From Desulfarculia bacterium (GTDB lineage: Bacteria; Desulfobacterota; Desulfarculia; G963662305), in the NCBI GenBank assembly GCA_963662305.1, contig OY759352.1, forward strand, positions 2,013,620 through 2,077,619: a stretch of DNA of 64,000 bases, read 5' to 3'. The notes below the pieces were generated by a model. That model worked only from the letters and a program-made list of their open reading frames with translations. It searched no databases and had not been told where the DNA came from. Below, piece after piece: positions 13,101 through 45,511 of the stretch; the first letter of the stretch is position 1, and each line of letters starts with the position of its first letter. The position numbers and the translations under genes were made by a program.

Positions 13101-13103
13101 TTC

Positions 13104-17251: not shown

Positions 17252-17316
17252 TTTCAAAGCTCGTCCGTTTTCACTATCCAATATGGTTTGATGTCATACG
17301 GTAAATCTCTTCAATC

Positions 17317-18135: not shown

Positions 18136-18142
18136 CTCCCGC

Positions 18143-21886: not shown

Positions 21887-21957
21887 GGCTGTTCTCCCCA
21901 GCGGGCCGAGGGCTTATAATGGCCCCCATGGACTCCGCACCTGAGAGGATTGAACAA

Positions 21958-23136: not shown

Positions 23137-23166
23137 GCAATATGGCGGCTTACCTTTCATCAGTCC

Positions 23167-29746: not shown

Positions 29747-30762
29747 TTCCCGGCGGCCCCGATGTCCTCAAAGGGCAGCCGCCGCATGCGGTGGGGCAGG
29801 GCCATGGCCGCGGCCCGCTCCACGTCCTTTTCCTCCACCGTGGTCCGGCCCTCCCAGGCGGCCAGGGTCTTGGCCGCCTTGAGGATAATGATGTCGGCCC
29901 GGTGGCCCTGGACCTCGGCGGCCAGGCACATCTCGGCGATGCCGGTCAGCGCGGCCTTGTCTGCCTCCACCTTATCCAAAAGCCCGGCCGCCTCCCTGAT
30001 CCGTTCGGTGATCTTTTGGTCCTCCTCCTGCCACTGGCGGCTGAAGGCCTCCGGGTTCTCGTCAAAGGCGGCCCGGCGGACCATGATCTCCACCCGGTCC
30101 TGGGCCTTGCGCAAACCCGCCACCTGAACGCACAACCCGAAGCGGTCCAGGAGCTGGGGCCGCAAGTCCCCCTCCTCCGGGTTCATGGTGCCCACCAGGG
30201 TGAACCGGGCCGGATGGGTGAAGGAGACCCCTTCCCGCTCCACGGTGCTGGCCCCCATGGCGGCGGAGTCCAGGAGCACGTCCACCACGTGGTCGTCCAA
30301 AAGGTTGACCTCGTCCACATAGAGGATGCCCCTATGGGACCCGGCCAGGAGCCCGGGCTCGTAGTGCTTCTCGCCCTCCTTGAGGGCCCGCTCCAGGTCC
30401 ATGGTCCCCACCACCCGGTCCTCGGTGGCGCCCACGGGCAGCTCCACCACCCGGACCCGGCGGGAGACCAAGGGCACCTCCTCCCCTGCCAGGACCTTGG
30501 CCCGGCACTCGGCCCTGGGGCAGTCTTGGCAGGTGGGGCCGCCCAGTTCATCCGGACCCAGTTGGAAGGGACAGTGCTCCACGGTCTTTATCTCCGGCAG
30601 GATGCGGGCCAGGGCCCGCACCGCGGTGGACTTGGCCGTGCCCTTTTCGCCCCGGACGAGCACCCCGGACAGGGTGGGGTTGATGACGTTGAGAATGAGC
30701 GCAAGTTTAAGCTGCTCCTGGCCCACCAGGGCCGCGAAGGGGTAGTTGCTGGTTTCAGACAA
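29743..30762 (-). CDS. AAA+ ATPase, Mg-chelatase subunit I (ChlI/BchI/CobS-like) family
   Basis: Walker A VLVRGEKGTAKST, Walker B ILYVDEVNLLDDH, sensor/arginine-finger regions. Confidence 0.85.
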   Translation of the reverse strand: MSETSNYPFAALVGQEQLKLALILNVINPTLSGVLVRGEKGTAKSTAVRALARILPEIKTVEHCPFQLGPDELGGPTCQDCPRAECRAKVLAGEEVPLVSRRVRVVELPVGATEDRVVGTMDLERALKEGEKHYEPGLLAGSHRGILYVDEVNLLDDHVVDVLLDSAAMGASTVEREGVSFTHPARFTLVGTMNPEEGDLRPQLLDRFGLCVQVAGLRKAQDRVEIMVRRAAFDENPEAFSRQWQEEDQKITERIREAAGLLDKVEADKAALTGIAEMCLAAEVQGHRADIIILKAAKTLAAWEGRTTVEEKDVERAAAMALPHRMRRLPFEDIGAAGK

Positions 30763-32805
30763 TTAGCTGTTCCTCCTGGCTATCTCCACCAGTTCCTGGG
30801 CTTTTAGATCCTCTATCTTGAAGTATTCGGCCCCCAGTTCCCGGGCCAGGCGGGCGGCCAGGCCCAGACGGACGATCCCCTGGGGCTCGGTATCCACCAC
30901 CACGAACTTGGCCCGTTCCTCCCGGCCCAGCCGCCCAGCCATGGCCAGGGCCTCCTGGAGGGGTTCCATCTCGGTCCCCAGGCCGGAGTTGGCCTTGCCG
31001 TCGGTGATGACGACGACGATGGGCCGGGCCTCGGGCTCCTTGCTCAAATGGTTGCTCAGCTGGCGGTGGGCCTCGGCCAGACCGGCCGAGACCGGGGTCC
31101 GGCCGCCGATGGGCAGCTCCTTGAGCAGCCGGGCGGCCAGGTCGATGGACGAGGTGGGCGGCAGGTTCACCTGGGCCTCGGTCTTGCGGAAGGTCACCAA
31201 ACAGACCTTGTCCCGCTTCTGGTAGGCGTCCAAAAGCAGGGACAGGATGGCCCCCTTGGTGGCGATCATCCGGGCCCGGACCCCCATGGACCCGGAGGCG
31301 TCCACCACGAACAGAAGAAAGCTGCCGATCCGCTTTTCCCGGACCTTGGTCCGGATGTCCTGGTCGTGGACGCAGACTTGCAGGCCTGATGAACCCTTGC
31401 GCCGGAGCTGGTAGGGGGCCGCGGCCCGGAGGGTGGCGTCCAGGGCCAGGTCGTTGTTCTCCCGGTTGAGATCGGCCTTGACGTAGCGGCCCTGTTTCTG
31501 GCTGGTCCGGGTGGGGGAGCGGCGGCCCGAGCCCCGGCGCAACCGGCGGTCCTTGGGCTGGCGCAGGGTCTTGACCTTAAAGGTCTGGCCCACCTCGAAG
31601 ATCTGCTCCTCCTCCCCGTCATCCGTGTCTTGGTCCTGGGGGGGCTCGGGCGGTTCGGGCAGGGGCAGGTCAAAGGGCTCGTCCAGGTCGTCGTTTTCCT
31701 GGTCCTCCTCCTGGTCCTGGTCGTCGGGCGGGGTCTCGGGCGGCTCCTCCGGTTCCTGGTCCTCCTGCTCCTCCGGCGGCGGAGGGGGCGGCGGGGGCGG
31801 AGGCAGGGGATCCCGGCGGCGGTGGAGCAGGGCCAGGGGGGCCACCCGGATGACCAGGTCCTCGCCGACCTCGGTCCGGCCCTCATAGGCGGCCAGGGCC
31901 CGGGCCGCCTCCCGGATGACCAGGTCGGCCCTGTGCCCGGCCACGTTGTTCTCCAGGCACAGCGAGGAGATGAACCCCTCCACCCGCCGCTCCAGTCTGA
32001 TTTTGGGCAGCAGCTCCCGGGCCCGGACCACGGCTTGGGCCAGCTTCTCCTCTTCCTGGGCGAATGAGGCGGCAAAGCCCTCCGGGTTGTGGTCGTATTT
32101 CTCCTTGCGTTCCATTAGCTCCACCCGGTCGCCCACCTCGGGCTCGCCCTTGACCTCCACGGCCAGGCCGAAGCGGTCCAGGAGCTGGGGCCGCAGCTCC
32201 CCCTCCTCCGGATTCATACTGCCCACCAGGATGATCCGGGCCGGGTGGCGGAAGGAGATCCCTTCCCGCTCGATCACGTTGACCCCCGAGGCGGCCGCGT
32301 CCAGGACGATGTCCACCAGATGGTCGTCCAGGAGGTTGACCTCGTCCACATAGACGAACCCCCGGTTGGCCCGGGCCAGCAGGCCCAGGGAGATGAGCCT
32401 TTGTCCGGTCCTGACCGCCCCGGTGAAGTCCAGCCCGCCCAGGACCATGTCCTCGGTGGCGTTGAGGGGCAGGTCCACCACCCGCACCGGTCGCCTCTCC
32501 CGTTCCCGGGGGTGGCCGTTGGAACGGCAGTCGGAGCAGAACAGCTCCGGGGCCTCCGGGTCGCAGCCGAAGCGGCAGCCCCGGACCACCTCTATCTCCG
32601 GCAGCAGCCCGGCCAGGGAGCGGACCGTGGTGGACTTGGCCGTGCCCTTCTCCCCCCGGATCAGAACCCCGCCCACACCAGGGTGGACGGCGTTCAAAAT
32701 CAGGGCCAGCTTCATCTCCTCCTGGCCCACAATGGCGCTGAAGGGAAAGGCCCGGTGCATGGACCGGATCGGGAACTGGATAGGTTGGGCTTGGGGTTGG
32801 CTCAT
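30763..32805 (-). CDS. Mg-chelatase subunit D-like protein (AAA+ N-domain, Pro/acidic linker, C-terminal vWA domain)
   Basis: Start at MSQPQAQ (ATG 32805); N-terminal ChlI-like AAA+ (IRGEKGTAKST), polyproline-acidic linker (PPPPPPPPPPEEQEDQE...), vWA MIDAS-like motif FVVDASGSM. Confidence 0.85.
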   Translation of the reverse strand: MSQPQAQPIQFPIRSMHRAFPFSAIVGQEEMKLALILNAVHPGVGGVLIRGEKGTAKSTTVRSLAGLLPEIEVVRGCRFGCDPEAPELFCSDCRSNGHPRERERRPVRVVDLPLNATEDMVLGGLDFTGAVRTGQRLISLGLLARANRGFVYVDEVNLLDDHLVDIVLDAAASGVNVIEREGISFRHPARIILVGSMNPEEGELRPQLLDRFGLAVEVKGEPEVGDRVELMERKEKYDHNPEGFAASFAQEEEKLAQAVVRARELLPKIRLERRVEGFISSLCLENNVAGHRADLVIREAARALAAYEGRTEVGEDLVIRVAPLALLHRRRDPLPPPPPPPPPPEEQEDQEPEEPPETPPDDQDQEEDQENDDLDEPFDLPLPEPPEPPQDQDTDDGEEEQIFEVGQTFKVKTLRQPKDRRLRRGSGRRSPTRTSQKQGRYVKADLNRENNDLALDATLRAAAPYQLRRKGSSGLQVCVHDQDIRTKVREKRIGSFLLFVVDASGSMGVRARMIATKGAILSLLLDAYQKRDKVCLVTFRKTEAQVNLPPTSSIDLAARLLKELPIGGRTPVSAGLAEAHRQLSNHLSKEPEARPIVVVITDGKANSGLGTEMEPLQEALAMAGRLGREERAKFVVVDTEPQGIVRLGLAARLARELGAEYFKIEDLKAQELVEIARRNS

Positions 32806-32807
32806 GC

Positions 32808-33542
32808 TCACAGACTCGCTTTCCGGACGCAACGCCCGGCCCAATAGAAAAAGACCAGACCGAAAAGAACCAGGACCAGCAGGGAAATCCACGGAAAGGG
32901 TCTGTCCAGGGCGGCGGCCCGGATGCACTGGCTGGCGTGGGTCAGGGGCAGGGCCTTGACCAGCCAGGCGGCCCACTGGGGCAGGCTTTCCAGGGAAAAA
33001 AAGGTGCCGCACAGAAAGGTCATGGGGGTGATGATGAAACTGTTGAGGCTGGACTGGTCGGCGTGGGACTTAACCTTCATGGCCCCCACCACCGAGGCCG
33101 CGGCGAATACGAAGGTGTTCAGCCCCAGGGAGAGCAGCAACAGGGGGCTGGGGTCGATCCGGACCCCGCCCAGCAGGGCCAGGAGGGCGATGATGGCCGC
33201 GCCCAACAATCCCCGGACCATGCCGGCCAGGACCTCCCCCAGGGTGATGGCCAAATGGTGGAGAGGCGCGGTCTGGAATTCCTCAAAGGTCATCCAGTAG
33301 AACCGGGCGATGTTGATGTCCATACCGATGGACCAGGCCTGGCTCATGGAGGTGAGGGACATGAGGCCGGGGATCATGAAGGTCAGGTAGTCCACCCCCT
33401 CCATGGTCACCGACCGGCCCAGCCCCCAGCCAAAGGCGATCAGGAACAGGGCCGGGCCGATGGCGTAGCTGATCAGGGTCTTGACCATCCGCCGTCTGAG
33501 GATGGCCATCTCCCGCCAGAAAACCGCGTAAACCGCCTTCAT
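32808..33542 (-). CDS. ABC-2 type transporter permease
   Basis: 244 aa, six predicted TM segments, ABC-2 family pattern; start overlaps upstream ATPase stop. Confidence 0.7.
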   Translation of the reverse strand: MKAVYAVFWREMAILRRRMVKTLISYAIGPALFLIAFGWGLGRSVTMEGVDYLTFMIPGLMSLTSMSQAWSIGMDINIARFYWMTFEEFQTAPLHHLAITLGEVLAGMVRGLLGAAIIALLALLGGVRIDPSPLLLLSLGLNTFVFAAASVVGAMKVKSHADQSSLNSFIITPMTFLCGTFFSLESLPQWAAWLVKALPLTHASQCIRAAALDRPFPWISLLVLVLFGLVFFYWAGRCVRKASL

Positions 33543-34408
33543 GGCCGCACCCTCCGCCCGGTGAGCCGGATGAATACATCCTCCAGGTTGGCCGTCCGGA
33601 TGAGTACATCGCCGGACATATCGGCCGCATGGGCCGCGGCCCGGTCACGGTCCTCGAAAAAGGTCATGCCGTCCTCCTCCCCGGCGCACTCCACCACCAC
33701 CCGGCCCACCCGCTCCAGCAGGGCGGCCGGGGTGTCCAGGGCGATGATCCGGCCCTGGTCGATGATGCCCACCCGGTGGCAGAGCTTCTCGGCCTCCTCG
33801 ATGTAGTGGGTGGTCAGGAAGATGGTCGCCCCGGAGCGGAGGCTGGCCTGGATCAGTTCCCACAGCCGCCGCCTGGTCTGGGGGTCCAACCCCACGGTGG
33901 GTTCGTCCAGGAAAAGGATCCTGGGTTGGTGAAGCAGGGCCCGGGCGATCATCAGCCGCCGCTTGAGTCCGCCGGAGAGGACCTTGGCCTGGGCCTTGCG
34001 GCGGTCGGACAGGCCGGTGAACTCCAGCAGCTCGTTGATCCGGGACTCACGCCGGGGCGGGTCCATGCGGTGGAGCAGGCCGTGGAGTTTCAGATTCTCG
34101 TATACCGACAGTTCGGCGTCCACGTTGGTGTGCTGGGGACAGACCCCGATCAACCCCTTGGCCGCCACCGCCTCCCGGACCACGTCGTGGCCGAAGACCC
34201 GGGCGGTTCCCTTGTCCGGCTTGGTCAGGGTGGTCAGGATCCTGACCGTGGTGGTCTTGCCCGCCCCGTTGGGGCCCAGGAACCCGAATATCTCCCCCGG
34301 CCGGACGGTCAGGCTGAGGCCGTCCACGGCCTTGACCTGGCCGTAGTGCTTGACCAGATTCTCTATCTCGATGGCCGGTCCGTCCATGTTTCCTCTCGAT
34401 TCAGTCAT
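33539..34408 (-). CDS. ABC transporter ATP-binding protein (ABC-2/DrrA-like)
   Basis: Walker A GPNGAGKTT, signature LSGGLKRR, Walker B ILFLDEPTVGLD. Confidence 0.8.
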   Translation of the reverse strand: MTESRGNMDGPAIEIENLVKHYGQVKAVDGLSLTVRPGEIFGFLGPNGAGKTTTVRILTTLTKPDKGTARVFGHDVVREAVAAKGLIGVCPQHTNVDAELSVYENLKLHGLLHRMDPPRRESRINELLEFTGLSDRRKAQAKVLSGGLKRRLMIARALLHQPRILFLDEPTVGLDPQTRRRLWELIQASLRSGATIFLTTHYIEEAEKLCHRVGIIDQGRIIALDTPAALLERVGRVVVECAGEEDGMTFFEDRDRAAAHAADMSGDVLIRTANLEDVFIRLTGRRVRP

Positions 34409-35216
34409 GATTCCGGGTATCTCCCCCGGAGGGGATCTCCTCCGGGGGCAGGGGGGCCTCCACCCGGATCAGGGGCCGGCCCCGGGAGTCCAAATCCACC
34501 CGGGCCCTGACCCCGTAGACCCGGGCCAGGTTCTCCGGAGTCAGGACCAGGGCCGGCTCGCCCAGGGCCGCCACCCGGCCCTGGTGGAGCAGGACCAAAT
34601 CGTCGGCGTACCGGGCGGCCAGGTTCAGGTCGTGGAGGCTCACCGCCAGGCAGAGCTGCCGGGACTCCTTCAAGCCGGTCAACAGGTCCAGAACCTCCAG
34701 CTGGTGGCGCAGATCCAGGTTGCTGGTGGGCTCGTCCAGGAGCAGAATCCGGGTCTCCTGGGCCAGGGCCCGGGCCAGAAGGGCTTTTTGTTTTTCTCCC
34801 CCGCTGAGCTCGTCGAAATAGCGTTCGGCCAGCCCGGTCAAACCAAGCGCGGCCAGGGCCTCCTGCACAGCCCGGCGGTCCTCCGGCCCCACCCGGAAAC
34901 GGAGATGGGGCCGCCGGCCCAACAGGACCACCTCGGCCACCGTGGCGGCCACGGACTGGGCCCCGTTCTGGGGCACGTAGCCGATCTCCCGGGCCAGGGC
35001 CCGGGCTGATAGGCGGGCCAGGTCTCGGCCCTCCAAGAACAGGCTGCCCTGGCCGGGTTTGAGAATCCGGTCCAGACAGCACAGCAGGGTGGACTTGCCC
35101 GACCCGTTGGGGCCTATCAGCCCGGTGAGTCGCCCCGGACGGAGATGCAGGGAGACCCGGTCCAGGACCCGGCGACTGTTGTAGGAGAACTCAATGTTTT
35201 CGGCCCGCAGGGTCAC
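34401..35216 (-). CDS. ABC transporter ATP-binding protein (Fe3+-siderophore/B12/heme importer type)
   Basis: GTG start at 35216 overlapping permease stop (GTGA); Walker A GPNGSGKST, LSGGEKQ, ILLLDEPT; the upstream part of ORF 34401-36110 is a spurious extension. Confidence 0.8.
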   Translation of the reverse strand: MTLRAENIEFSYNSRRVLDRVSLHLRPGRLTGLIGPNGSGKSTLLCCLDRILKPGQGSLFLEGRDLARLSARALAREIGYVPQNGAQSVAATVAEVVLLGRRPHLRFRVGPEDRRAVQEALAALGLTGLAERYFDELSGGEKQKALLARALAQETRILLLDEPTSNLDLRHQLEVLDLLTGLKESRQLCLAVSLHDLNLAARYADDLVLLHQGRVAALGEPALVLTPENLARVYGVRARVDLDSRGRPLIRVEAPLPPEEIPSGGDTRNHD

Positions 35217-36250
35217 GACAGCCAGTCCTTCCTGCGCCGGGCCAGGAGATAGAGGAAAAAGGGTCCGCCCAGAAGGGCGGTCATGATTCCCACCGGCATC
35301 TCCACCGGCCAGACCAGGCTCCGGGCCGCCGTGTCCGCAGCCAGGAGCAGCCCGGCCCCCACCAGGGCCGAGGCCGGGACCAGGAAACGGTGGTCCGAGC
35401 CGATGAGGCTGCGGGTGATGTGGGGGGCCATGAGGCCGATGAAGTTGATGGCCCCGGTAAAGGAGACCACCGAGGCGGTTAAAAGAGTCGACAGGAGCAG
35501 GGTCGCAAGCCTCACCCGGCCCACCCTGACCCCCAGGCTGTGGGCCGTCTCCTCGCCCGCGCCCAGGGCGTTGAGGTCCCAGGCCAGAAACATGAGGGCG
35601 AGGAGGCCCAGGAGGACCACCGGAGCCAGGAACCAGACCGTCTCCATCTGGGCGTCCCACAGGGAGCCCATGAGCCAGAAGACAACCTCCCGGAGGTCCT
35701 CCTCTTTGGCCACATACTGGAGCAGGGAGACCAGTCCGGAAAAGATGTAGCCCACGGCGATGCCGCTGAGGATGATGGTCTCCCGGCTGGACTTGGCCAG
35801 CCGGGCCAGCACGTAGGCCAGAATCATGGCCGCCGAGGCGGTGACAAAGGCGTTGGCCACCACCAGGTAGCGTCCCAGGCCCAGGATATCCACCCCCAGG
35901 ACCAGGGCCAGGGCCGCGCCGAAAGCCGCTCCGGAGCTGATGCCCAGCACGGCCGGGCTGACCAGGGGATTCATCAGCACGGCCTGGGTGCCGGTGCCGG
36001 CCAGGGCCAGGCCCGCGCCGGCCACCAGGGCCAGCAGCACCCGGGGCAGCCGCAGCTCGAAGACGATCACCGCCGCCTGGGCCGAGGGCTCCCGGGCCGG
36101 GCTGAGCCACTCCCAGAAGACCCGGGCCACGGTCTTGAGTCCGTAACCGGACAGCCCCACCGAGGCTCCCAGGAGGATAAGAGCCAGCAACGCCGCCCCT
36201 AGGACGGCCAGGACAAACACTTTTCGGGAATGGCTGATGCTTTTGGTCAT
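35213..36250 (-). CDS. FecCD-family ABC importer permease
   Basis: 345 aa multi-TM FecCD-type sequence. Confidence 0.85.
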   Translation of the reverse strand: MTKSISHSRKVFVLAVLGAALLALILLGASVGLSGYGLKTVARVFWEWLSPAREPSAQAAVIVFELRLPRVLLALVAGAGLALAGTGTQAVLMNPLVSPAVLGISSGAAFGAALALVLGVDILGLGRYLVVANAFVTASAAMILAYVLARLAKSSRETIILSGIAVGYIFSGLVSLLQYVAKEEDLREVVFWLMGSLWDAQMETVWFLAPVVLLGLLALMFLAWDLNALGAGEETAHSLGVRVGRVRLATLLLSTLLTASVVSFTGAINFIGLMAPHITRSLIGSDHRFLVPASALVGAGLLLAADTAARSLVWPVEMPVGIMTALLGGPFFLYLLARRRKDWLS

Positions 36251-37287
36251 GGAATAAAGTAGGTCCCGTCCATCTCCAGGCCGAAGAACCGGCCCAGCAT
36301 CTCCCGGTGGATGGCCCGGGGGTCTACCTCGGCCATTTTCCCGGGATGAAAAACTTTGGCCAGGTGCAGCGCTCCGATGAGGTTACGCAGCCCGTATCCG
36401 ATGCGACTGTTGTAGAGGTAGACCCGTCCCCGGGCCGTGCACTTCAGGCCGCGGATGCCCGGCCGGTTCATGGCCTCCTCCCTCAGGGCGGCCATGTACT
36501 CCCGGTCCGGCACCTTGAAACCCACCCCGGTGAGGTCCGCGGACAGGGCCAGATGGTCCGGGGCCTGGTCCACGATCCACTCGGCCGAAACCCGCTGATA
36601 GGGCAGGGGCAGGGCATCGGAGATGTTCCTGCCTCCGGCCAGGGGGATAATCTGGCGGCCCCTCTTGTCGTTGGAGGTGAAATACAGCTGGCGGCCCGAT
36701 CCCAGAAAGACCCGGGGCCGCTCCTCCGGGGTCAGGTCGCCCAGGCGCCGGTCCAGCAGCCGGACCTGACGGTCCAGAAAGCCGTTCAGCTCCTGACCCC
36801 GCTCCTCCTGCTGAAACAGCTCCGCCAAGGCCTTGACCATGCCCTTGATCCGGCCCTGGAAGTAGCCGTTCATGAACACCACCGGGATGCCCAGGGATTC
36901 CATTTTTTCGGCGGTGTTGAAAAAATGGGTGTCGGCGATGATCAGATCCGGCTTCAGCTTCCAGATCAGCTCCAGGTTGGGATGGACCACCGAGCCGATG
37001 GAGGGCCGGGCCTCCAGGGCCGGGGGCCAGTTGGTCCAGTCGGAGCGGGCGATGATCCGCTCTCCGGCGCCCAGGGCCCAGACCGTCTCCGTGGCCGCGC
37101 CGCCCAGGACCATGGCCCGCCGGATCGGCCGCTTCACCTCCCGCTCCCGGCCCATCATGTCCGCCACCTTGAAGAACCCGGGGCGTACCTGGAGGACCTG
37201 GGGATCCGGGTCAAAGCCGCACCAGGCCGGAGCGGTCCAAAGCGTCGCAGCCACAAGGATCATGGTTAATGACAGACGGTTCGCCAA
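36247..37287 (-). CDS. Periplasmic substrate-binding protein (iron-siderophore/B12/heme ABC importer)
   Basis: 346 aa, signal peptide, two-lobe PBP pattern; operon with permease and ATPase. Confidence 0.8.
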   Translation of the reverse strand: MANRLSLTMILVAATLWTAPAWCGFDPDPQVLQVRPGFFKVADMMGREREVKRPIRRAMVLGGAATETVWALGAGERIIARSDWTNWPPALEARPSIGSVVHPNLELIWKLKPDLIIADTHFFNTAEKMESLGIPVVFMNGYFQGRIKGMVKALAELFQQEERGQELNGFLDRQVRLLDRRLGDLTPEERPRVFLGSGRQLYFTSNDKRGRQIIPLAGGRNISDALPLPYQRVSAEWIVDQAPDHLALSADLTGVGFKVPDREYMAALREEAMNRPGIRGLKCTARGRVYLYNSRIGYGLRNLIGALHLAKVFHPGKMAEVDPRAIHREMLGRFFGLEMDGTYFIP

Positions 37288-37351
37288 ACAGGCAACTCCC
37301 TCAAACAGGCCCCCGGTCGGGAAATCCGGCCGGGGGAATCGGGTTGTTTAT

Positions 37352-38911
37352 CTATGAGGCCGGGATGCCCAGGACCTCGCATTTGCGCCAGAAGGTGCAG
37401 TTGTTGGTAAAGGAGCTGAGCAGGCCGGCCCGGGTGCCCTCGCCGCCCAGATAGGCCAGGTAGGTGGCCAGCTGGTCGGCCGAGGCGTCCACCCCGTAAA
37501 AGACCTGGAAGAGGATGTTGATGTACTGCTCGTCGGTGGTGTTGCGGGCCTGGAAGGTGCTGCCGTTGAGCAGCATGGAGGCCATGCTGGTGGCGGTGAG
37601 GGAACCGCCCTGGAGAGCCGCGGCCAGTTGGCTCAGTTCATCGTCGGCGCCTTCCCGGTCCAGAACCTGGATGTACCAGGTGGCCAGCCAGGCCTTCAGG
37701 GCCCCCGCATCGGCGCAGAAGGAGATGGTCAACGGGATCAGGTTGGTGTCGACCGTCTCATCGACCGCCCCGGTGGCGGAATTGTAGATGAGCGCCTGGG
37801 AGTCGGTCCGGTTGGTGATCCAGAGCAGGCCGTTCTTGTCCACGCCCACTCCGCCGGAGGTGGAGACGGTGCAGTTCTTGTTGTCCATGGCGCTCACCGT
37901 GGCCCCAACCTCGCCGGTGCCGGGGTTGAAGGAATGGACGGTGGTGTCGTCGGTTCCGTGGTAGCCCACGAAGTAGCCCAGGGTGGGGGAGATGATCTGG
38001 AGGCTGCCGATGGCCCCGTAGGGATGGTTGTTGGCGTCGCCGTCCTCCACCACCGTGGCCACCTCATAGGTGTTTACGTCGATGCTGACGATGCCGCCGG
38101 TGTACTCGTACCCGGTCGTCTCCCCGTAGGGATAGCGGCCCGCAGCGCTGATAAAGAGCTTGCCCAGCTCAGGCACGTAGACCACGGCATTGGGGCTCTT
38201 CACCGGCAGGGTGATGCCCTTGGCTCCGTCGGCCGCGCCCTTGCCGGTGTCGATCTCGGTGTCCGTGGCGGTGTCGAACACGGCCACGTAGGAGTTGTTG
38301 GTGGGCCACCAGGAGCTGTCGCGGTTGAGCCGCTGGATCAGGACGAACAGCTTGCCGTTGACCACGATGCCCTCGTGGGCCTCGGGAATGCCGTCCGAAT
38401 CCTGGTAGGAGCTGATGTCCAGGGTTCCGGTCTTGAACTCGGCCTCTGTGGCGGCGTTCAGATTGACCACCCAGATGCCGCTGCTGCCGTACATGGGCAT
38501 ATAGGCCTTGGAGGCGTTGAGAAATATCAGGTCGTGGGGGTTGTTGGAGACCTGGTCCGGCGAGTCCAGGGTGGAAAACTGCCACAAAGGCGTTTTCGGA
38601 TCAGAGATGTGGAACTTGGCGATGCTGTCGGACTTGTAGCGTTCGATGCGGTAGAAATACTCGCCGTAGGAACGCATGATCAAATCCGAGATGGAGGTGG
38701 GGAGAATGTCAACCTGGCTGCCCCGGGGTCCGCCCACCGGGTCCACGTCGATCAGGACCGTGGCCCCGGAGGTGTAGTCGGCCGCGCCGGTGCACAGGGT
38801 GGCCGTGTCGGCCAGGGCCGAACCGGCCAGCCCAAAAACAAGGGCCGCGATCAGAAAAGCATGGATCAGGGATAATCTAAATCCGCAACTAAAAATCGAA
38901 CGGGGTTTCAT
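37352..38911 (-). CDS. Secreted protein, unknown function (beta-rich; C-terminal DUF4214-like segment)
   Basis: 519 aa with N-terminal signal peptide; Thr/Gly/Asp-rich beta-like repeats; lies between the TonB receptor and the binding protein. Confidence 0.5.
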   Translation of the reverse strand: MKPRSIFSCGFRLSLIHAFLIAALVFGLAGSALADTATLCTGAADYTSGATVLIDVDPVGGPRGSQVDILPTSISDLIMRSYGEYFYRIERYKSDSIAKFHISDPKTPLWQFSTLDSPDQVSNNPHDLIFLNASKAYMPMYGSSGIWVVNLNAATEAEFKTGTLDISSYQDSDGIPEAHEGIVVNGKLFVLIQRLNRDSSWWPTNNSYVAVFDTATDTEIDTGKGAADGAKGITLPVKSPNAVVYVPELGKLFISAAGRYPYGETTGYEYTGGIVSIDVNTYEVATVVEDGDANNHPYGAIGSLQIISPTLGYFVGYHGTDDTTVHSFNPGTGEVGATVSAMDNKNCTVSTSGGVGVDKNGLLWITNRTDSQALIYNSATGAVDETVDTNLIPLTISFCADAGALKAWLATWYIQVLDREGADDELSQLAAALQGGSLTATSMASMLLNGSTFQARNTTDEQYINILFQVFYGVDASADQLATYLAYLGGEGTRAGLLSSFTNNCTFWRKCEVLGIPAS

Positions 38912-38981: not shown

Positions 38982-41090
38982 TCAGTAGTCGTAGCTTAAG
39001 CTCAGCCAGAAGGACCGGCCGGCCGAGGGGTAGCCGTTGAAGTCCTCGTACTGGTCGTCGCCCACGTTGCGGACCTCGAAATCAACGGTGGCGCCCCAGA
39101 GCTTGTAGGACAGGCCCACGTTGAACACGTTCTTGTCCTCGGCCGGGAGCAGGTTGGCCGTGTCGTAGTACATCCCCTTCTGGGCCTGGTACTCACCGTA
39201 GACCTTCAGGCCCTCCCACAGAAACTCCAGCCGGCAGAAGTATGACTGGTTGAACCGGCCGGGCAGTTCCTTGCCCTCAAAGGCTTTCACATCGCCGTGG
39301 TTGATGGCCTCCTGGAAGGTGGCGTTGCCGCTGAACCGGAAATACTCCAGGAAATCCACATTGAGCTGAAGCTCCACGCCCTGGATGTCGGCGTGGGCGA
39401 TGTTTTTGGAAGTGCCCACCCCGTAGGAGTCGTAGACCCGGATGATGATGTCGTCCACGTCGCTACGGAAATAGGCCGCCCGGGCGAAAAGACGGTCCAG
39501 GCAAAATACCTTGGGGGTCAGGCTGACCTCCAGCCCCACATCGAAGTTGATTCCGGACTCGGCCTCCAGATCCTTGTTGGCGGCCAGGAATCCGCGGTCG
39601 CCGAAGAGCTCGTAGAAGTTGGGCTCGCGGACGTACTGGGAAAAATTGGATTTAAGGGCCAGCCAGTCCAGGGCCTGAAATTTCAGCCCGATCTGGGGGT
39701 TGACGTACTGCTCCTGCCGCTTCCGGCCCTCCAAGACCGAACCCCAGGAGCTGACCGCGCTCTTGAGGTGGTCCTTAAGCCGGGTGTAGCGCAGGGCCGG
39801 GGTGATGGTCAGGCGCTCGTCCAGCAGGACCAGGCTGTCCTGAAGGGCCGCCGAAATGGAGGTCCGGTCGGAGGAGGGGGGGGTGTCCACCCCCAGCTTG
39901 TCCACGGGCAGATAATCCTCGTAGCGGATGTCGGCGCTGACCGCCGCAGTGTGGTAGCGGGTGGGCCATTCCACGAACAGGTTGGCCCCGTAGCGGTCGG
40001 TGTTGTAGATGTTGAGCTGCCTGCCCAGGCCGATGCCGTCGTGGCGGTCGTCGTACTCCTCCTCCTGCCACAGGTAATCCAGGCGCAGGGCCGCGTTGAG
40101 GTGGAGGCTGGTCAGGTTGTCCTTGCTCAGGCGCAGGGTGGAGATGTTGCGCTTGGTGGTCAGGGAGGCGTCGGTCTTGGTGGAGTTGTTCCAGGAGGAC
40201 AGGCCCTGATCCTTGTAAAAGAACTGGTTCATCCCGTCCAGGCGAAAGCCGCCTCCCAGGTCGTATCCGGCCTTGACCAGAACGTTGGCCTTGTCGTATT
40301 GGGCGTTGTTGCGGTCCTCGTAGCGGTCGTCGTCCTTGTTGAACTGGGTCCCGTTGTCGTTGAATATCTCAAAATCGTTGTCGCTGGCGGAATAGTCGGC
40401 GGAGATCAGATAATCGAACCGGCCCAGGTTGTGGTTAAGGTAGGCCGAGGCCTGGCGGGTGTTGAAGGAGCCGTAAGCTGCCGAGGCCGAGGCGTTGAGG
40501 CCCTCTTGGACCTTGAGGGTTTTGATGTTGACCACTCCGCCGATGGAGGCTTTGCTGAAATTGGCCGGGGTGGTCCCTCGGTATATCTCCAGGGATTCCA
40601 CGTCGCTCAAGGAGATGTTGCCCAGGTTGACCCCGCCCCCGGAACCGTCGTTGAGCAGGATGCCGTCCAGATAGATCATGACCTGGTCGCTGGAGGAACC
40701 CCGCAGAGACACGGTGGAGAACCCGCCCAGGCCGCCCTGCTGGCGGACCTGGACCCCGGCCTCCTTCTCGATCACGTCGGCCACGTTCTCCATCCGGCCC
40801 TGGAACTGGGACCGGTCGATGACCGTGAAGAAACCGGGCGAAACGGTCAGATCCACCTGTCCGGTCTCGATCTTTTCGGAGGTGACCTCCACCTCCTCCA
40901 GGACGGTCTCTTTTCCCTCGGACTCCTGTGAGACGTCTTCCTTGGAGCGGTCTTCCTCCGCTGTGATTTCAAGGGAATGGCCGCTTTCTCCGGCCCGGAC
41001 AGGACCGCCGGCACCCCCCCAGATCAGGAGGAATGAAAGGATAATGAACGGAATGCGCCGCCGAGATTTATCCAGAGTGGCCGTGATCAC
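38982..41090 (-). CDS. TonB-dependent outer-membrane receptor, BtuB-like (downstream of cobalamin riboswitch)
   Basis: GTG start at 41090 with AGGGGGAG upstream gives signal peptide VITATLDKSRRRIPFIILSFLLIWGGAGGPVRA; plug and barrel regions, C-terminal Y; the ORF-track ATG at 41153 lies inside the terminator palindrome. Confidence 0.85.
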   Translation of the reverse strand: MITATLDKSRRRIPFIILSFLLIWGGAGGPVRAGESGHSLEITAEEDRSKEDVSQESEGKETVLEEVEVTSEKIETGQVDLTVSPGFFTVIDRSQFQGRMENVADVIEKEAGVQVRQQGGLGGFSTVSLRGSSSDQVMIYLDGILLNDGSGGGVNLGNISLSDVESLEIYRGTTPANFSKASIGGVVNIKTLKVQEGLNASASAAYGSFNTRQASAYLNHNLGRFDYLISADYSASDNDFEIFNDNGTQFNKDDDRYEDRNNAQYDKANVLVKAGYDLGGGFRLDGMNQFFYKDQGLSSWNNSTKTDASLTTKRNISTLRLSKDNLTSLHLNAALRLDYLWQEEEYDDRHDGIGLGRQLNIYNTDRYGANLFVEWPTRYHTAAVSADIRYEDYLPVDKLGVDTPPSSDRTSISAALQDSLVLLDERLTITPALRYTRLKDHLKSAVSSWGSVLEGRKRQEQYVNPQIGLKFQALDWLALKSNFSQYVREPNFYELFGDRGFLAANKDLEAESGINFDVGLEVSLTPKVFCLDRLFARAAYFRSDVDDIIIRVYDSYGVGTSKNIAHADIQGVELQLNVDFLEYFRFSGNATFQEAINHGDVKAFEGKELPGRFNQSYFCRLEFLWEGLKVYGEYQAQKGMYYDTANLLPAEDKNVFNVGLSYKLWGATVDFEVRNVGDDQYEDFNGYPSAGRSFWLSLSYDY

Positions 41091-41134
41091 AGCTCCCCCT
41101 TTAATAGGCCGGCGGCCAGGGGCGGATCCGCTGG

Positions 41135-41174
41135 TAAAAAAAAGTCCCCCCATCCCTTAAGGGATGGGGGGACT
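41135..41174 (-). terminator. Intrinsic-terminator-like hairpin (perfect 32-nt palindrome followed by U8 on the minus strand); probable riboswitch expression platform
   Basis: 41143-41174 AGTCCCCCCATCCCTT/AAGGGATGGGGGGACT is a perfect palindrome; on the minus strand it is followed immediately by eight U; sits between the riboswitch aptamer and the receptor start codon. Confidence 0.55.
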
Positions 41175-41294
41175 GCACCCAGCTTACTTGGTCTCCCCAA
41201 AGGCGCTTTTAATTATCTAAACAGCGCCCGGCCTCGGTCCGGTCTTTCGCCGGCCTTGGTTATGAGCAGATGGCGGGTCTTCTGACTCCCGGAT

Positions 41295-41450
41295 CATCCT
41301 CCGGCCGCCCCTTCCCGCCGCCTTTTTTGACGGCAGTGGCTTATCGCGACCTTTGTCCCCGGTTACAGCGGCGGGACCGTGCCGGACTTGCACCGGCTTC
41401 CCCATTGAGCCTTACGGCACCGATCTACATTATGCCTCTACTAATAAAGG
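41295..41450 (-). promoter_or_regulatory. Cobalamin (AdoCbl) riboswitch aptamer
   Basis: Minus-strand RNA reads ...AAUGGGGAAGCCGGUGCAAGUCCGGCACGGUCCCGCCGCUGUAACCGGGGACAAAGGUCGCGAUAAGCCACUGCCGUCAAAAAAGGCGGCGGGAAGGGG..., matching the conserved cobalamin-riboswitch core (GGGAA..CCGGUG..AAGUCCGG..CCCGCC.CUGU...GCCACUG...GGGAAGG, i.e. the B12 box). Confidence 0.8.
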
Positions 41451-41468
41451 CGTACCCGGTCCCTGTCA
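41440..41468 (-). promoter_or_regulatory. Candidate sigma-70-type promoter for the riboswitch leader (-35 TTGACA, 17-nt spacer, -10 TATTAG)
   Basis: Motifs read directly on the minus strand immediately 5' of the aptamer; not experimentally anchored. Confidence 0.35.
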
Positions 41469-41924
41469 ACCCCTAACTGTCTTGGAACCCTGTCTGAATT
41501 TTATTGGGATAGACCGGAGTAACGTATCCGGGGAACCGACTTTCTCCTTCCAGGCAGATTATCCGGATGTTATTAAAAAGAAATTGAGCGGAGAGCTTCG
41601 TTTTGCCTGATCCGCAGGTCTTTGTTAAGCTCCTTTCGATTGCCTTCTCTCATGGACAACAGTCCACCGGGTTTCAATACCCGGCCAGGTTCCCCCAGGT
41701 TCGCCTTTTGCCCCGGCGATTCACCAACCTGGAGTCCGCCCCGCCTGCGCCCGCCGCCGGGCCGGTCCATAATAATACCTGGTGTACTCAGGGAACAGGT
41801 CTGATAAGATACGATCAAACTAGTTTCCACGGACCCGAAGAAAGCTCGGGCCGGACCATGGAACGCCGCTGGTTCAAATAATGGTAGGCTGGTTTTCGCC
41901 ACATGCTGTTCAGGTGATTCACTA

Positions 41925-44090
41925 ATGCTGTTCAGACCTGCAGAAGATCAATCACGACATCCCAGATTCAGAAAAGGCGCCCTCCTTTTTATCGCCGTTT
42001 TCCTGATGGTGGTTGTTGTTGTAGGCCTGGAATTGAGCGTGAGGGCGGACCGATCACTGACCGACACCCTCTGTCGCCAGTTTAATGAGCAGCAGCTCAT
42101 AACAGCCCGAAACGCCAAGGACCTTATCGAGCGGGAGCTGGATTTGGTCAAAGGGGAGATCCGGATCGTTACCAGACAGGTATCTCTGGCCCCGGACAGA
42201 CCGGAGGACCTTAAGGCGATAATCGAGAACAGCATGCTGCGGATCGCCGGCGGAGGCGTCCGCAAGGTGGAGGTCATAGACCCCAAGGGAAAGAAGGCTC
42301 TTGTATACGCCCCCCACCGCCACGCTGTGGCTGAAAAAACGGCGGATGAATCCAGCCTGAGCTACCTAGACGTATCTTCCTTATCCAGCGGGAAAATATG
42401 GGTATCCCGGCCCAGGGTCGAGCACGGTCGGATAATCATGTTCATGGCTACCGCAGTGGAAGGGCCGGGGCCTCGGCTGCTGGTTTTTGAAATAAATGCC
42501 ACTTTGCTGGTCAGGCCTTTTTTGAAAAATATCCGCTCCGGCCAGGTTGGGTATGCCTGGCTGATCGACGAAAAGGGCCGGTTTATTTATCATTATGTCA
42601 CTGAATTCATAGGCAAGGAGTCCTTCCAGGCGCGCCGCGACCGGAACCCGGATATCTCTTACGAGGAGATCAACCGCATCCAGAAGGAAAAAATGGTTCA
42701 GGGGCGGGAAGGGACCGGGTATTACTATTCCGGTTGGCATCGAGGCACAACCGGACGGATCAAGAAACTGATCGCCTTTACTCCTGTCTCCATCTCCTCC
42801 TCGCCGTCCCAGAGATGGTCGGTCGCCGTGGTTTCGCCCTTCTACGACATGGAGAATGTGGTCAACCACCGGCACACCGGGCAATTTATCCTGGTTATTT
42901 TTTTCATATCGATAATCGTGATCTCATTCGGCACTCTCGTCTATTGGGAGATGCGATGGTCCCGTACTCTGTCCCGGCGGGTCGAGGTCCGCACCGAAGA
43001 GCTGCGGCGTTCGGAGGAGAGGTACCGCCTTCTTGTCGAAAGCGCGGAAGACTATATTTTTACCATCGACCTGGACAAAAAACTGCAGTCCATGAACAAC
43101 TACACCGCCAAGTTTTTCGGTGGAAGCCCCGAAGACCTGGTGGGAAAGGGGTTCGGCCATCTTTTCCCCGGCCCTGTTGCCGCCCGGCTGGAAAGAGAGG
43201 TGGACAAGGTCTACCTCTACGGCAAGAGCCGGCGCGACGAGTTCGAATTGGACGTCGAGGAGCATCAGATCTGGATCGATATCCATCTCATGCCCATAAA
43301 GGAAAAGGGGGGGGCGGTCACCCGGGTTTTGTGCATCGCCCGCGACATAACTGAAAGCAAGGAGCTCGCGAGGAACCTGATTAACACTGAAAAGCTGGCC
43401 TCCCTGGGCACTCTTGCCGCGGGGGTGGCCCACGAGGTCAACAACCCCCTGGGGGTCATCTTGGGCTTCTGCGATATCCTGATAAAAAACGCCCGTCCCG
43501 GCAGCCAGGAGTTGGAAGATTTGGAGATCATCCGTCGCCAGGGTGATCACTGCAAGGAGGTGGTCGCCAACCTGTTGACCTTTGCCCGCCAAGATGACCT
43601 GGAGGAGGAGTACTGCGATTTGAACGCCTGCCTGCTTGAGATTTTGCAGGTCTGCCGGCACAGCCTGGAGATGAACAGCATTGAATTGACGATAAAAACA
43701 GGGGAGGGCCTGCCTCCGGTTTTGGGCCATAAGCGAAAACTGCAACAGGTTTTCCTGAATTTGATGAACAATTCCCTGGCGGCCCTGGGAGAAGGCGGGG
43801 AGGTGACGGTTAAAACCGGATATGACCGCAGCAGCCGAAGGGTGACGGTTCTTTTCCGGGATAACGGCGAAGGCATCGCCCAAAAGGACCTCAAACGTAT
43901 TTTCGATCCTTTCTTCACCACCAAGTCCATCGGCGAGGGCACAGGCCTGGGATTGTTCGTTACCTACGGCATTATCAAACAATACGGCGGAACCATAGAG
44001 TGCCTCAGTTCAGGCCTGGACCAGCCGGAAAAACCCAGCGGGACCCAGTTTATTATCAAACTCAAACCAAGGACGGCAGGACAGCCATGA
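41925..44090 (+). CDS. Sensor histidine kinase (periplasmic sensor domain, PAS, HisKA, HATPase_c)
   Basis: H-box AAGVAHEVNNPLGV; N, G1, G2 boxes (NLMNNSLAAL, DNGEGI, GEGTGLGL); N-terminal TM plus extracytoplasmic domain. Confidence 0.85.
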   Translation: MLFRPAEDQSRHPRFRKGALLFIAVFLMVVVVVGLELSVRADRSLTDTLCRQFNEQQLITARNAKDLIERELDLVKGEIRIVTRQVSLAPDRPEDLKAIIENSMLRIAGGGVRKVEVIDPKGKKALVYAPHRHAVAEKTADESSLSYLDVSSLSSGKIWVSRPRVEHGRIIMFMATAVEGPGPRLLVFEINATLLVRPFLKNIRSGQVGYAWLIDEKGRFIYHYVTEFIGKESFQARRDRNPDISYEEINRIQKEKMVQGREGTGYYYSGWHRGTTGRIKKLIAFTPVSISSSPSQRWSVAVVSPFYDMENVVNHRHTGQFILVIFFISIIVISFGTLVYWEMRWSRTLSRRVEVRTEELRRSEERYRLLVESAEDYIFTIDLDKKLQSMNNYTAKFFGGSPEDLVGKGFGHLFPGPVAARLEREVDKVYLYGKSRRDEFELDVEEHQIWIDIHLMPIKEKGGAVTRVLCIARDITESKELARNLINTEKLASLGTLAAGVAHEVNNPLGVILGFCDILIKNARPGSQELEDLEIIRRQGDHCKEVVANLLTFARQDDLEEEYCDLNACLLEILQVCRHSLEMNSIELTIKTGEGLPPVLGHKRKLQQVFLNLMNNSLAALGEGGEVTVKTGYDRSSRRVTVLFRDNGEGIAQKDLKRIFDPFFTTKSIGEGTGLGLFVTYGIIKQYGGTIECLSSGLDQPEKPSGTQFIIKLKPRTAGQP

Positions 44091-45511
44091 CCGGCAGGAT
44101 TTTAGTTATCGATGATGAGAAGGACATGCTCTTGCTGCTGAGCCGGATTATCACCGAAGAGGGCGCATACCAGGTAGTCACCGAATCGGATCCGCTCAGG
44201 GCGATGGCCCTGTTCAAGGAGCAGCCCTTCGACCTGGTTCTCACTGATCTGAAGATGCCCAAAATGAACGGCATCGAAGTCCTGGAGCAGGTCAAGCGGA
44301 CCAGCCCTGACGTATCCGTGATCATCCTGACCGCCTTTGCCACCATTGACAACGCGGTGGCCGCAGTTCACAAGGGTGCCTACGACTATCTGACCAAGCC
44401 TTTTCAAAGGGAGCGGCTGCTCCTGACCATTGAGAAGGTGATGGCCTTGCAGGAGCTGGTCCGGGAGAACATGACCCTCCGCCAGGCCCTGGCCAAAAAG
44501 GAAGAACAGACGCCCATAGTCGGCTCCTCGCCTTTTGTAAAAGATATGGAGCAGCGCATCCGTCAGGTGGGCCCGACCATGGCCACGGTCCTTATCACCG
44601 GCCCCAGCGGCACCGGAAAGGAGCTGGTCGCCCGGGCGGTCCATGAACACAGCCAGCGCCGGAACAACAAATTTGTGACGGTCAACTGTACGGCTCTGCC
44701 GGCCGGTGTTCTGGAGAGCGAACTTTTCGGCCACGTCAAGGGAGCCTTTACCGGCGCGTTAAGAGATAAAAGGGGGTTGGTGGAAGAGGCGCACGGGGGC
44801 AGCCTTTTCCTGGACGAGATCGGAGATTTGAGCCCCATGATCCAGACCACCCTGCTGCGGCTTCTTCAGGAAGGCGAGTATAAGCCGGTGGGCAGCGTGG
44901 TTACCAAAAAGGCGGACGTCCGTTTCATTGCCGCCACCAATCACAATCTCAAGCAGGACATCAAGGATAAGAATTTCCGGGAGGACCTCTACTACCGCCT
45001 GAACGTGATCCACCTTGAGATGTCGCCGCTGACCGAGCGAAGACGGGACATTCCCCTGTTGGCCTATCATTTTCTGAAAAAATACAGTCAGCTGAATAAA
45101 AAGCAGATCCAGGCCATCTCCCCGGCCACCCTTCAGGTGCTGATGAACCTGGACTACCCCGGTAATATCAGGGAGCTGGAGAACATTATCGAGCGCGGGG
45201 TCATTTTTTGCCAAACCAACACCCTGGGTCTGGCCGATTTGAGGCTGGAGGATCAGGACCCCATTTTTTCCGAACTGCGGGACGACATCTTCCGAATGTC
45301 CTTCAAGGAGGCCAAGGAGAGAGTCGTCCAGGCCTTTCACTATCGCTACATCGGCTATCTGCTGGCCGAAACCGGCGGCAACATCTCCCAGGCCGCGGAG
45401 ATGGCCGGGATTCAACGCCAATATCTCCATCGGCTGATGAAGGATACCGGCATAAGCACGGAAGAGTATAAGAAGGGCTTTCAACAGCCCGACAGAGAAA
45501 CCGAGGATTAG
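44087..45511 (+). CDS. Sigma-54-dependent response regulator (NtrC family: REC, AAA+ sigma-54 activator, HTH)
   Basis: ATG 44087 overlaps kinase stop (ATGA); REC Asp in LVLTDLKMP; Walker A GPSGTGKE; GAFTGA sigma-54 contact motif; C-terminal Fis-type HTH. Confidence 0.9.
   Translation: MTGRILVIDDEKDMLLLLSRIITEEGAYQVVTESDPLRAMALFKEQPFDLVLTDLKMPKMNGIEVLEQVKRTSPDVSVIILTAFATIDNAVAAVHKGAYDYLTKPFQRERLLLTIEKVMALQELVRENMTLRQALAKKEEQTPIVGSSPFVKDMEQRIRQVGPTMATVLITGPSGTGKELVARAVHEHSQRRNNKFVTVNCTALPAGVLESELFGHVKGAFTGALRDKRGLVEEAHGGSLFLDEIGDLSPMIQTTLLRLLQEGEYKPVGSVVTKKADVRFIAATNHNLKQDIKDKNFREDLYYRLNVIHLEMSPLTERRRDIPLLAYHFLKKYSQLNKKQIQAISPATLQVLMNLDYPGNIRELENIIERGVIFCQTNTLGLADLRLEDQDPIFSELRDDIFRMSFKEAKERVVQAFHYRYIGYLLAETGGNISQAAEMAGIQRQYLHRLMKDTGISTEEYKKGFQQPDRETED

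Follow-up and report, generated by a model that had tools for sequence, protein, structure and literature searches.

Corrinoid riboswitches signal through a kissing contact of loop L5 with loop L13 that stabilizes the P13 helix (PMC10327014), and the rearrangement that links ligand binding to termination in the terminating members of this family has been called unclear (PMC7367189). In the repressing P. megaterium metE leader the antiterminator is otherwise made from the 3′ side of P13, and in the activating cobT leader of Alkalihalobacillus halodurans (A. halodurans) P13 itself shares a strand with the terminator (both PMC10327014). The transport proteins that such leaders can control include, in Bacteroides, the surface B12-binding lipoprotein BtuG, which has been regarded as exclusive to Bacteroidetes and has a lipobox and a lipoprotein export signal (Wexler et al. 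2018, PMC6143338). Bacteroides also has hmu-like receptor operons that combine a cobalamin riboswitch with the CobN-like proteins BtuS/HmuS (PMC10100974; Rocha et al. 2019 as cited there). Here we analyse 64,000 nucleotides (nt) of a Desulfarculia bacterium genome (GenBank assembly GCA_963662305.1, contig OY759352.1, positions 2,013,620 to 2,077,619), hereafter the window, in which a TonB-dependent receptor gene on the minus strand is preceded by a long leader. We conclude that this leader (41469–41088, −) is a class-I cobalamin riboswitch that probably acts as a transcriptional OFF switch by premature termination.

To identify the aptamer, we searched the 64-kb window against all 4227 Rfam families with cmscan and found that RF00174 (Cobalamin) is the sole family that reaches its gathering score. 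The match at 41440–41255 on the minus strand scores 109.7 bits (E = 1.4e-26), where the gathering score is 31.5, and its alignment spans model positions 1–189 of 189. An earlier note on this DNA, made from the sequence alone, had proposed a cobalamin aptamer core and B12 box in the minus-strand leader and named an Infernal search with the Rfam model as the check, and the significant full-length match bears this proposal out. The B12 box GCCACUG (41340–41334, −) aligns with the conserved CCACUG of the RF00174 model, and both sequence and model alignment place the loop UCCCG at 41376–41372 (−) as L5, the aptamer half of the L5–L13 kissing loop, in agreement with the published L5 consensus UCCCG (PMC10327014). 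All model positions of the P6 extension (P7–P11) are aligned at high posterior probability, and because this extension is present we assign the aptamer (41255–41440, −) to class Cbl-I. That class is described as selective for adenosylcobalamin (AdoCbl; PMC7367189), and by analogy we infer that the usual AdoCbl selectivity carries over to this leader. Full-length model match, B12 box, L5 UCCCG and P6 extension are all shared with the RF00174 Cbl-I leaders of Escherichia coli btuB, Bacillus subtilis btuF/yvrC and P. megaterium metE; the window element likewise belongs to the 5′ leader of an operon for corrinoid transport, and its terminator platform is of the kind found in the Bacillus examples. 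The leader is a genuine, ordinary B12 riboswitch, and as a riboswitch call it is nothing new.

Between the aptamer and the receptor gene lies a perfect 32-nt palindrome, AGTCCCCCCATCCC-TTAA-GGGATGGGGGGACT (41174–41143, −), the strongest palindrome of the entire window, which forms a 14-bp stem with a 4-nt loop. Ten of the 14 pairs are G–C, and the hairpin has a computed folding energy of −30.3 kcal/mol (z = −5.1 relative to shuffled sequences). Eight T residues occupy 41143–41136, the first of which is also the last base of the palindrome, so the palindrome described in the earlier note stands as given but its U8 tract has to be shortened to seven U residues beyond the stem. Located by folding and palindrome scanning, this GC-rich hairpin with its U-run (41136–41174, −) is a predicted intrinsic terminator of textbook form, at which release of the transcript is expected, and the terminator-type expression platform proposed before is upheld both here and in relatives. 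Because the plus strand has no T-run after the hairpin, the terminator is expected to act on minus-strand transcription only. Upstream of the aptamer, we read by eye a putative sigma-70-type promoter (41441–41469, −) consisting of TTGACA at 41469–41464, a 17-nt spacer and TATTAG at 41446–41441; a consensus promoter scan did not call this hexamer pair, in which position 6 of the −10 hexamer is G. Alignment shows that the promoter sequence GGTTGACA and the −10 region are conserved in two metagenomic contigs, L010 and L011, and the leader edge at 41470 given previously coincides with the putative promoter. Downstream of the terminator, receptor translation probably starts at GTG 41090, 45 nt past the hairpin, with the ribosome-binding site AAAGGGGGAG at 41102–41093. 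We chose this codon because the N-terminus then resembles a signal peptide, and preferred it to ATG 41153 from the list of open reading frames, which lies within the terminator hairpin.

Aptamer and terminator are both conserved upstream of related receptors. A protein-based scan with one genome per species recovered receptor relatives in Desulfobacterales-type metagenome-assembled genomes and Desulfatibacillum (45–50% identity) and in two Gammaproteobacteria (30%), and RF00174 precedes the receptor in all seven scanned genome loci with upstream DNA, at 85–117 bits. The closer contigs L010 and L011, which were found through a neighbouring gene (85% and 62% identical for that gene, respectively), also carry RF00174, so that nine of nine orthologous receptor loci have an upstream riboswitch. 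All seven Desulfobacterota-type loci compared (five genome loci, L010 and L011) have a hairpin and U-run in the interval from aptamer to start codon, and none was evident there in the two gammaproteobacterial loci, L006 and L007. In a three-way alignment of the window with L010 and L011, the terminator stem is kept as the loop varies (TTAA in the window, GACA in L010); the stem of L011 is one pair shorter in both arms, and one extra C in the window is matched by one extra G, a compensatory change. Retention of the stem through changes of the loop indicates that the hairpin is selected as a structure, and the loop sequence of L010 implies that the palindromy of the window's loop is incidental. 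The Ectothiorhodospiraceae locus L007 has a second, weak RF00174 match (2267–2441, −; 39.2 bits) immediately upstream of its main riboswitch and on the other strand, which suggests divergent riboswitch-controlled transcription units.

Three further elements occupy the interval between aptamer and terminator. Directly after P1, folding predicts hairpin A (GGCCGG-CGAAAGA-CCGGACC; 41236–41255, −), which is conserved in L010 with a G–U change; its position makes it a candidate P13/L13, and its loop CGAAAGA resembles the published L13 loop CGAGGAA and has weak complementarity to L5 UCCCG. Hairpin B (GGGCGCU … AGCGCCU with an AU-rich loop; 41201–41229, −), predicted by minimum-free-energy folding and alifold, recurs in L010, L011 and L110 with its stem kept and its loop variable. 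The third element, helix X:Y (41165–41199, −), pairs X, UGGGGAGAC (41199–41191), with Y, GUCCCCCCA (41173–41165), across the 17-nt loop CAAGUAAGCUGGGUGCA (41190–41174). Y doubles as the foot of the terminator 5′ arm; X:Y and the terminator are mutually exclusive, which makes X:Y a structural antiterminator candidate. No base of the 35 nt before the terminator (GGGAGACCAAGTAAGCTGGGTGCAGT-CCCCCATCC) differs among the window, L010 and L011, and this stretch is therefore more conserved than the aptamer, which itself varies among the three. The sequence GGGTGCAGTCC is common to the window and Desulfatibacillum, and an L13-like motif, GGGUGCAGUCC (41170–41180, −), is invariant in the window, L010, L011 and L004, with its GGG complementary to the CCC of L5.

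To find further examples of this platform, we scanned metagenome contigs for CAGAARACC-N75-105-GGGTGCAGTCC and obtained at least 120 stretches, 53 of those listed having a B12 box upstream; this set was chosen by the motif, and the invariance of the motif is not judgeable from it. In nearly all of the 53 B12-box leaders listed, the motif lies at the 5′ foot of a terminator whose 5′ arm begins (A)GUCC and whose 3′ arm ends GGAC(U) before a run of U residues. These leaders share the layout RGGAY-CAAG-N4-7-YGGGUGCA-GUCC, which overlaps the terminator foot, and the segment before CAAG, corresponding to X, pairs with the first 5–11 nt of the terminator arm, corresponding to Y. Across 31 distinct leaders the six core X:Y pairs are paired in nearly all cells, with pairs 5:35 and 6:34 alternating among AU, GC and GU. 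The X:Y covariation score is 0.288 compared with 0.201 for shuffled controls, none of 500 of which reaches the observed value, and slid registers score lower; alifold also yields X:Y when the terminator 3′ arm is omitted. A full-text literature search for the motif returned unrelated matches only, and we met no description of the module in the papers searched. The 38 riboswitches tested in PMC9600662 do not contain the motif, save for an unrelated match within an aptamer. This recurrent module, a covarying helix that overlaps the terminator together with an invariant L13-like loop, is of more interest than the riboswitch call and is available in many natural variants.

These elements are consistent with a repressing switch. 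With corrinoid bound, the aptamer would be locked and the 14-bp hairpin with its U-run would form, so that RNA polymerase would halt about 45 nt before the receptor start codon and the operon would be OFF. When corrinoid is scarce, X:Y (41199–41191 with 41173–41165) would hold the foot of the terminator 5′ arm and permit read-through, probably assisted by further elements. We favour the OFF sign because the same platform type precedes cbiC, tetrapyrrole methylase, btuCD-like, thiC-family, cobT, cobC-like and receptor genes, a corrinoid regulon that is usually repressed: tested corrinoid riboswitches repress such genes, and the activating example was called the first known (Kennedy et al. 2023, PMC10327014). 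The proposed mechanism differs in its parts from the metE and cobT leaders. In metE the terminator is a hairpin distinct from P13, whose 3′ side is used by the antiterminator (PMC10327014), whereas in the window the terminator has a single covarying competitor, a hairpin that has an L13-like loop and shares its 3′ strand with the terminator foot, and hairpin A, which is P13 by position, offers only a poor L13. The window resembles A. halodurans cobT (PMC10327014) in that one hairpin, with a loop that is G-rich and complementary to L5, has its 3′ strand in common with the terminator 5′ strand, but here this hairpin lies about 75 nt after P1 with two hairpins between, its loop is 17 nt rather than 10 nt long, and the genes that would be regulated are mainly uptake and biosynthesis genes that are normally repressed.

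How much of the locus the switch would govern depends on the extent of the transcript. The receptor gene (38982–41090, −) opens a co-directional minus-strand run for which Pfam and NCBIfam confirm the genes named in the earlier note, although that list omitted a gene for a 519-residue BtuG-like propeller (37352–38911; AlphaFold2 model and Foldseek) between receptor and importer. The run continues with a BtuFCD-type importer (34401–37287) made up of a periplasmic binding protein (36247–37287; Pfam, NCBIfam), a FecCD permease (35213–36250; Pfam) and an ABC ATPase (34401 to about 35240; Pfam), and with an ABC-2 exporter (32808–34408; Pfam) made up of an ATPase (33539–34408) and a permease (32808–33542). 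Genes for a ChlD-like protein (30763–32805), a ChlI-like protein (29743–30762), a radical SAM/SPASM-type enzyme (28688–29746) and CobN (24963–28685), all assigned with Pfam and NCBIfam, are followed by a second TonB-dependent receptor (23167–24951; Pfam), the last co-directional gene. The run ends at 23167, where cbiZ (21919–23136, +) converges. From 37287 to 23167 neighbouring genes either overlap or are at most 11 nt apart, in line with the short or overlapping junctions of the earlier note. L011 keeps the order receptor, BtuG-like protein, periplasmic binding protein, FecCD, ABC ATPase, ChlD, ChlI, radical SAM enzyme and CobN, with the exporter absent, and L010 keeps this order with the exporter ATPase. 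Because junctions are tight and gene order is conserved, co-transcription is supported, and a single riboswitch-controlled polycistronic mRNA of about 18 kb, perhaps attenuated or stabilized after the second gene, is plausible. The same mRNA would then most probably also encode the importer, the ABC-2 exporter, the CobN/ChlI/ChlD chelatase, the radical SAM enzyme and the second receptor.

A shorter unit is conceivable but unlikely, in which the riboswitch controls the receptor and BtuG-like genes only and the downstream importer, chelatase and radical SAM genes have a promoter of their own. The two largest gaps of the run, an unstructured one of 70 nt (38981–38912) and one of 64 nt (37351–37288), flank the second gene, and folding places a GC-rich intercistronic hairpin (37310–37336, −) directly after the btuG-like stop codon. 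Hairpins of different sequence occupy the same place in L010 (about 11576–11603) and L011 (about 11573–11598), so it is the position and not the sequence that is conserved, and the receptor and BtuG-like pair is the only part of the locus conserved in all relatives. This hairpin could end or attenuate transcripts, but it lacks a canonical U-tract (CCUGUUUG) and was not called by the terminator scan, which found no convincing minus-strand intrinsic terminator inside the co-directional run. A scan likewise found no promoter-like minus-strand site between 41200 and 21500 from which a separate downstream transcript could start, and the receptor-to-CobN order is kept in L010 and L011. The hairpin may be an attenuator, or a 3′ structure that stabilizes the mRNA, and may thereby set how much outer-membrane protein is made relative to the products of the downstream genes.

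Several observations weigh against a repressing riboswitch that controls a long corrinoid operon. X:Y, with just 8 bp, one mismatch and a loop of 17 nt, faces a terminator of −30 kcal/mol; on secondary structure alone it would be easily displaced, implying that a stabilizing element is missing from the model. In a thermodynamic search for partners of the terminator 5′ arm in transcripts ending at the terminator loop, the strongest predicted partners differ among the window, L010, L011 and L004. The X:Y loop ends in YGGGUGCA, which resembles a canonical L13 and is complementary to L5; if this loop is the kissing partner, ligand would stabilize the antiterminator hairpin, which by the rules of Kennedy et al. 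(PMC10327014) would mean activation. As to the genes, the conserved hairpin after the second gene could end many transcripts there, and the receptor stays below the NCBIfam BtuB cut-offs (TIGR01779, 142.6 against 599.7; NF007926, 92.6 against 836) and scores equally with a haem-receptor subfamily.

The nature of the X:Y loop gives rise to an alternative that we regard as improbable, namely an ON switch in which X:Y is P13, its YGGGUGCA loop kisses L5 when corrinoid is bound, the terminator is blocked and an uptake and salvage operon is induced, with termination as the default state. The X:Y loop, ending in CUGGGUGCA, is a second L13 candidate that is similar to a published L13, CGGGUGAA, and complementary to L5 at CCCG, but the L5 side offers no informative variation: its CCCG core is present in 42 of the 44 related leaders with a recovered L5 string (48 examined), and because L5 is nearly invariant the kissing partner is not assignable by L5 covariation. 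The X:Y 3′ strand is the terminator foot, so that P13 and terminator would be mutually exclusive as in the activating A. halodurans cobT leader, and stabilization by a kissing loop would account for a helix that alone seems too weak against −30 kcal/mol; however, hairpin A occupies the usual place of P13, the X:Y loop follows some 75 nt later, and docking is impaired by long linkers between P1 and P13 (PMC5028336). Several class members precede lower-ligand or salvage genes (cobT, thiC-family and cobC-like), and the salvage gene cbiZ lies within the locus, but most members precede cbiC/methylase genes or corrinoid importers, for which induction by the end product is implausible, and a single activating corrinoid riboswitch has been described (PMC10327014). 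If the ON sign were true, the window leader and at least 50 metagenomic leaders would be corrinoid-activated switches for uptake, salvage and lower-ligand genes.

Other pairings of the platform were tried and set aside. The 5′-arm search did not return a consistent antiterminator derived from the aptamer, the predicted partners being AUGGGG plus GGGAAGGGG in the window, X in L010, the P1 5′ strand in L011 and a different segment in L004. A general pseudoknot between YGGGUGCA and the platform upstream of X shows no enrichment (mean z = +0.44; −0.24), and the absence of preferred complementarity to the rest of the platform (mean z +0.44) is as expected of a free loop, a point on the side of the ON switch. 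The window's own class alone contains a local match of 6 bp, GCGCCU:GGGUGC (z = −4.0 for the window), which cannot coexist with X:Y because the linker is 1 nt. Pairing of GCAGU with the B12 box (ACUGC) was rejected since most related leaders have G or U as the next base after CCACUG, as was pairing of X with the 5′ half of L5 (GGUCC), since X is the same in the five leaders whose L5 reads GGACC or GGGCC. Dual, mainly translational or Rho-dependent control, with the hairpin chiefly structural and ribosome access to the weak GTG decisive, deserves very little credence: the loci L006 and L007 indicate that the receptor family can be regulated without an evident hairpin and U-run, and the GTG start has a Shine–Dalgarno-like run only 2–4 nt upstream, but the perfect 14-bp GC-rich stem with eight U residues is that of a textbook intrinsic terminator and the ribosome-binding site lies 40 nt past the hairpin, unpaired with it in predicted folds.

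A role of the locus in corrinoid uptake is supported by the products of its first two genes. The receptor contains the Plug (PF07715) and TonB_dep_Rec_b-barrel (PF00593) domains and is BtuB-like only by context. The 519-residue protein encoded by the second gene has no Pfam or NCBIfam assignment over its first 400 residues, and an AlphaFold2 model built on an alignment of 55 homologues (predicted local distance difference test score 89.5) shows a seven-bladed β-propeller followed by a helical C-terminal DUF4214 domain. The top 14 Foldseek matches of this model in the PDB are all Bacteroides BtuG (E about 1e-12 to 1e-13), with target-normalised TM-scores of 0.74–0.81 in 13 of the 14 and sequence identities of 15–17%, and most of the matched structures were solved with bound cobalamin or in complex with BtuB. 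A profile of the 55 homologues matches nine BtuG entries over the same segment, at E values of only 0.03–0.12. The modelled fold thus points to a BtuG-like B12-binding propeller, which ties the locus to corrinoid uptake, and supports the view that the first two genes encode an outer-membrane corrinoid capture pair. The protein has a signal peptide (N-terminus MKPRSIF...LAGSALADTATLCTG), with no lipobox and no conserved Cys at this place in the consensus of the 55 homologues.

Homologues of the BtuG-like protein (144 at E ≤ 1e-10) come mostly from Desulfobacterota and in part from Gammaproteobacteria, and the gene always adjoins the receptor gene in relatives (L001–L008, L010 and L011), Gammaproteobacteria included. 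A paralogue (P0004) that is 61% identical to the BtuG-like protein is encoded on the same 2.6-Mb contig outside the window; L011, at 62%, may be an orthologue of the paralogue's locus, and the organism probably has two such operons. Compared with the Bacteroides btuB-btuG-btuFCD loci (PMC6143338; Abellon-Ruiz et al. 2023, PMC10404256), the window has riboswitch, receptor, seven-bladed propeller and BtuFCD-type importer in the same order. By contrast, its host is Desulfobacterota-like, its propeller has neither lipobox nor Bacteroidetes export signal and carries an extra DUF4214 domain, and it shares only 15–17% identity with BtuG, with no significant match at the sequence level. A BtuG-fold protein outside Bacteroidota suggests that B12 capture by a receptor and a propeller is not confined to that phylum, and a BtuG-fold partner of a riboswitch-controlled TonB receptor in Desulfobacterota and Gammaproteobacteria is a second by-product of this analysis that is of more interest than the riboswitch call itself.

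Among the remaining genes of the run, the one for the binding protein scores best in NCBIfam against BtuF, though below its cut-off. CobN (TIGR02257, 967.7 against a cut-off of 822) and the ChlD-like protein (TIGR02442, 798.5 against 779) exceed their thresholds and the ChlI-like protein falls just below (TIGR02030, 429 against 467), so that all three subunit families of a class I chelatase (CobN/ChlH, ChlI and ChlD) are encoded together. The Bacteroides hmu-like operons similarly place a cobalamin riboswitch before TonB-dependent receptors with CobN- and ChlI/ChlD-family proteins; in comparison, the window adds the radical SAM/SPASM-type enzyme, the ABC-2 exporter and a full BtuFCD importer, and its CobN and ChlD reach the NCBIfam cobaltochelatase cut-offs. 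The riboswitch marks this Desulfobacterota-like operon of about 18 kb as corrinoid-regulated, which is useful for annotation, and gives context to genes that are poorly understood, including CobN and ChlI/ChlD beside receptors, the radical SAM enzyme and the ABC-2 exporter.

The genes around the operon add further observations. The plus-strand gene cbiZ, encoding an adenosylcobinamide amidohydrolase, is wedged between the second receptor gene and a second cobN, both on the minus strand. Because only about 30 nt separate it from either neighbour, the promoter of cbiZ must fall within the second cobN, and any transcript reading through from the riboswitch operon would run antisense to cbiZ. A minus-strand open reading frame at 21883–23160 was discarded as an antisense artefact of cbiZ. 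Beyond it, a second minus-strand array (10891–21886) encodes this CobN (18143–21886), a GDPD-family phosphodiesterase, a CN-hydrolase, CcsA-like and ResB-like cytochrome c assembly proteins and a second importer of binding-protein, FecCD and ABC type; no riboswitch precedes the array, which possibly serves further tetrapyrrole handling. Just past this B12-related island, a STAND-NTPase/HEAT-repeat protein (4052–6901) and a phage-type integrase (9049–10242, +) hint at the boundary of a mobile or recently acquired region. At the other end, the plus strand at 41925–45511 encodes a PAS/Cache histidine kinase and a sigma-54-dependent response regulator, whose transcription diverges from that of the riboswitch promoter.

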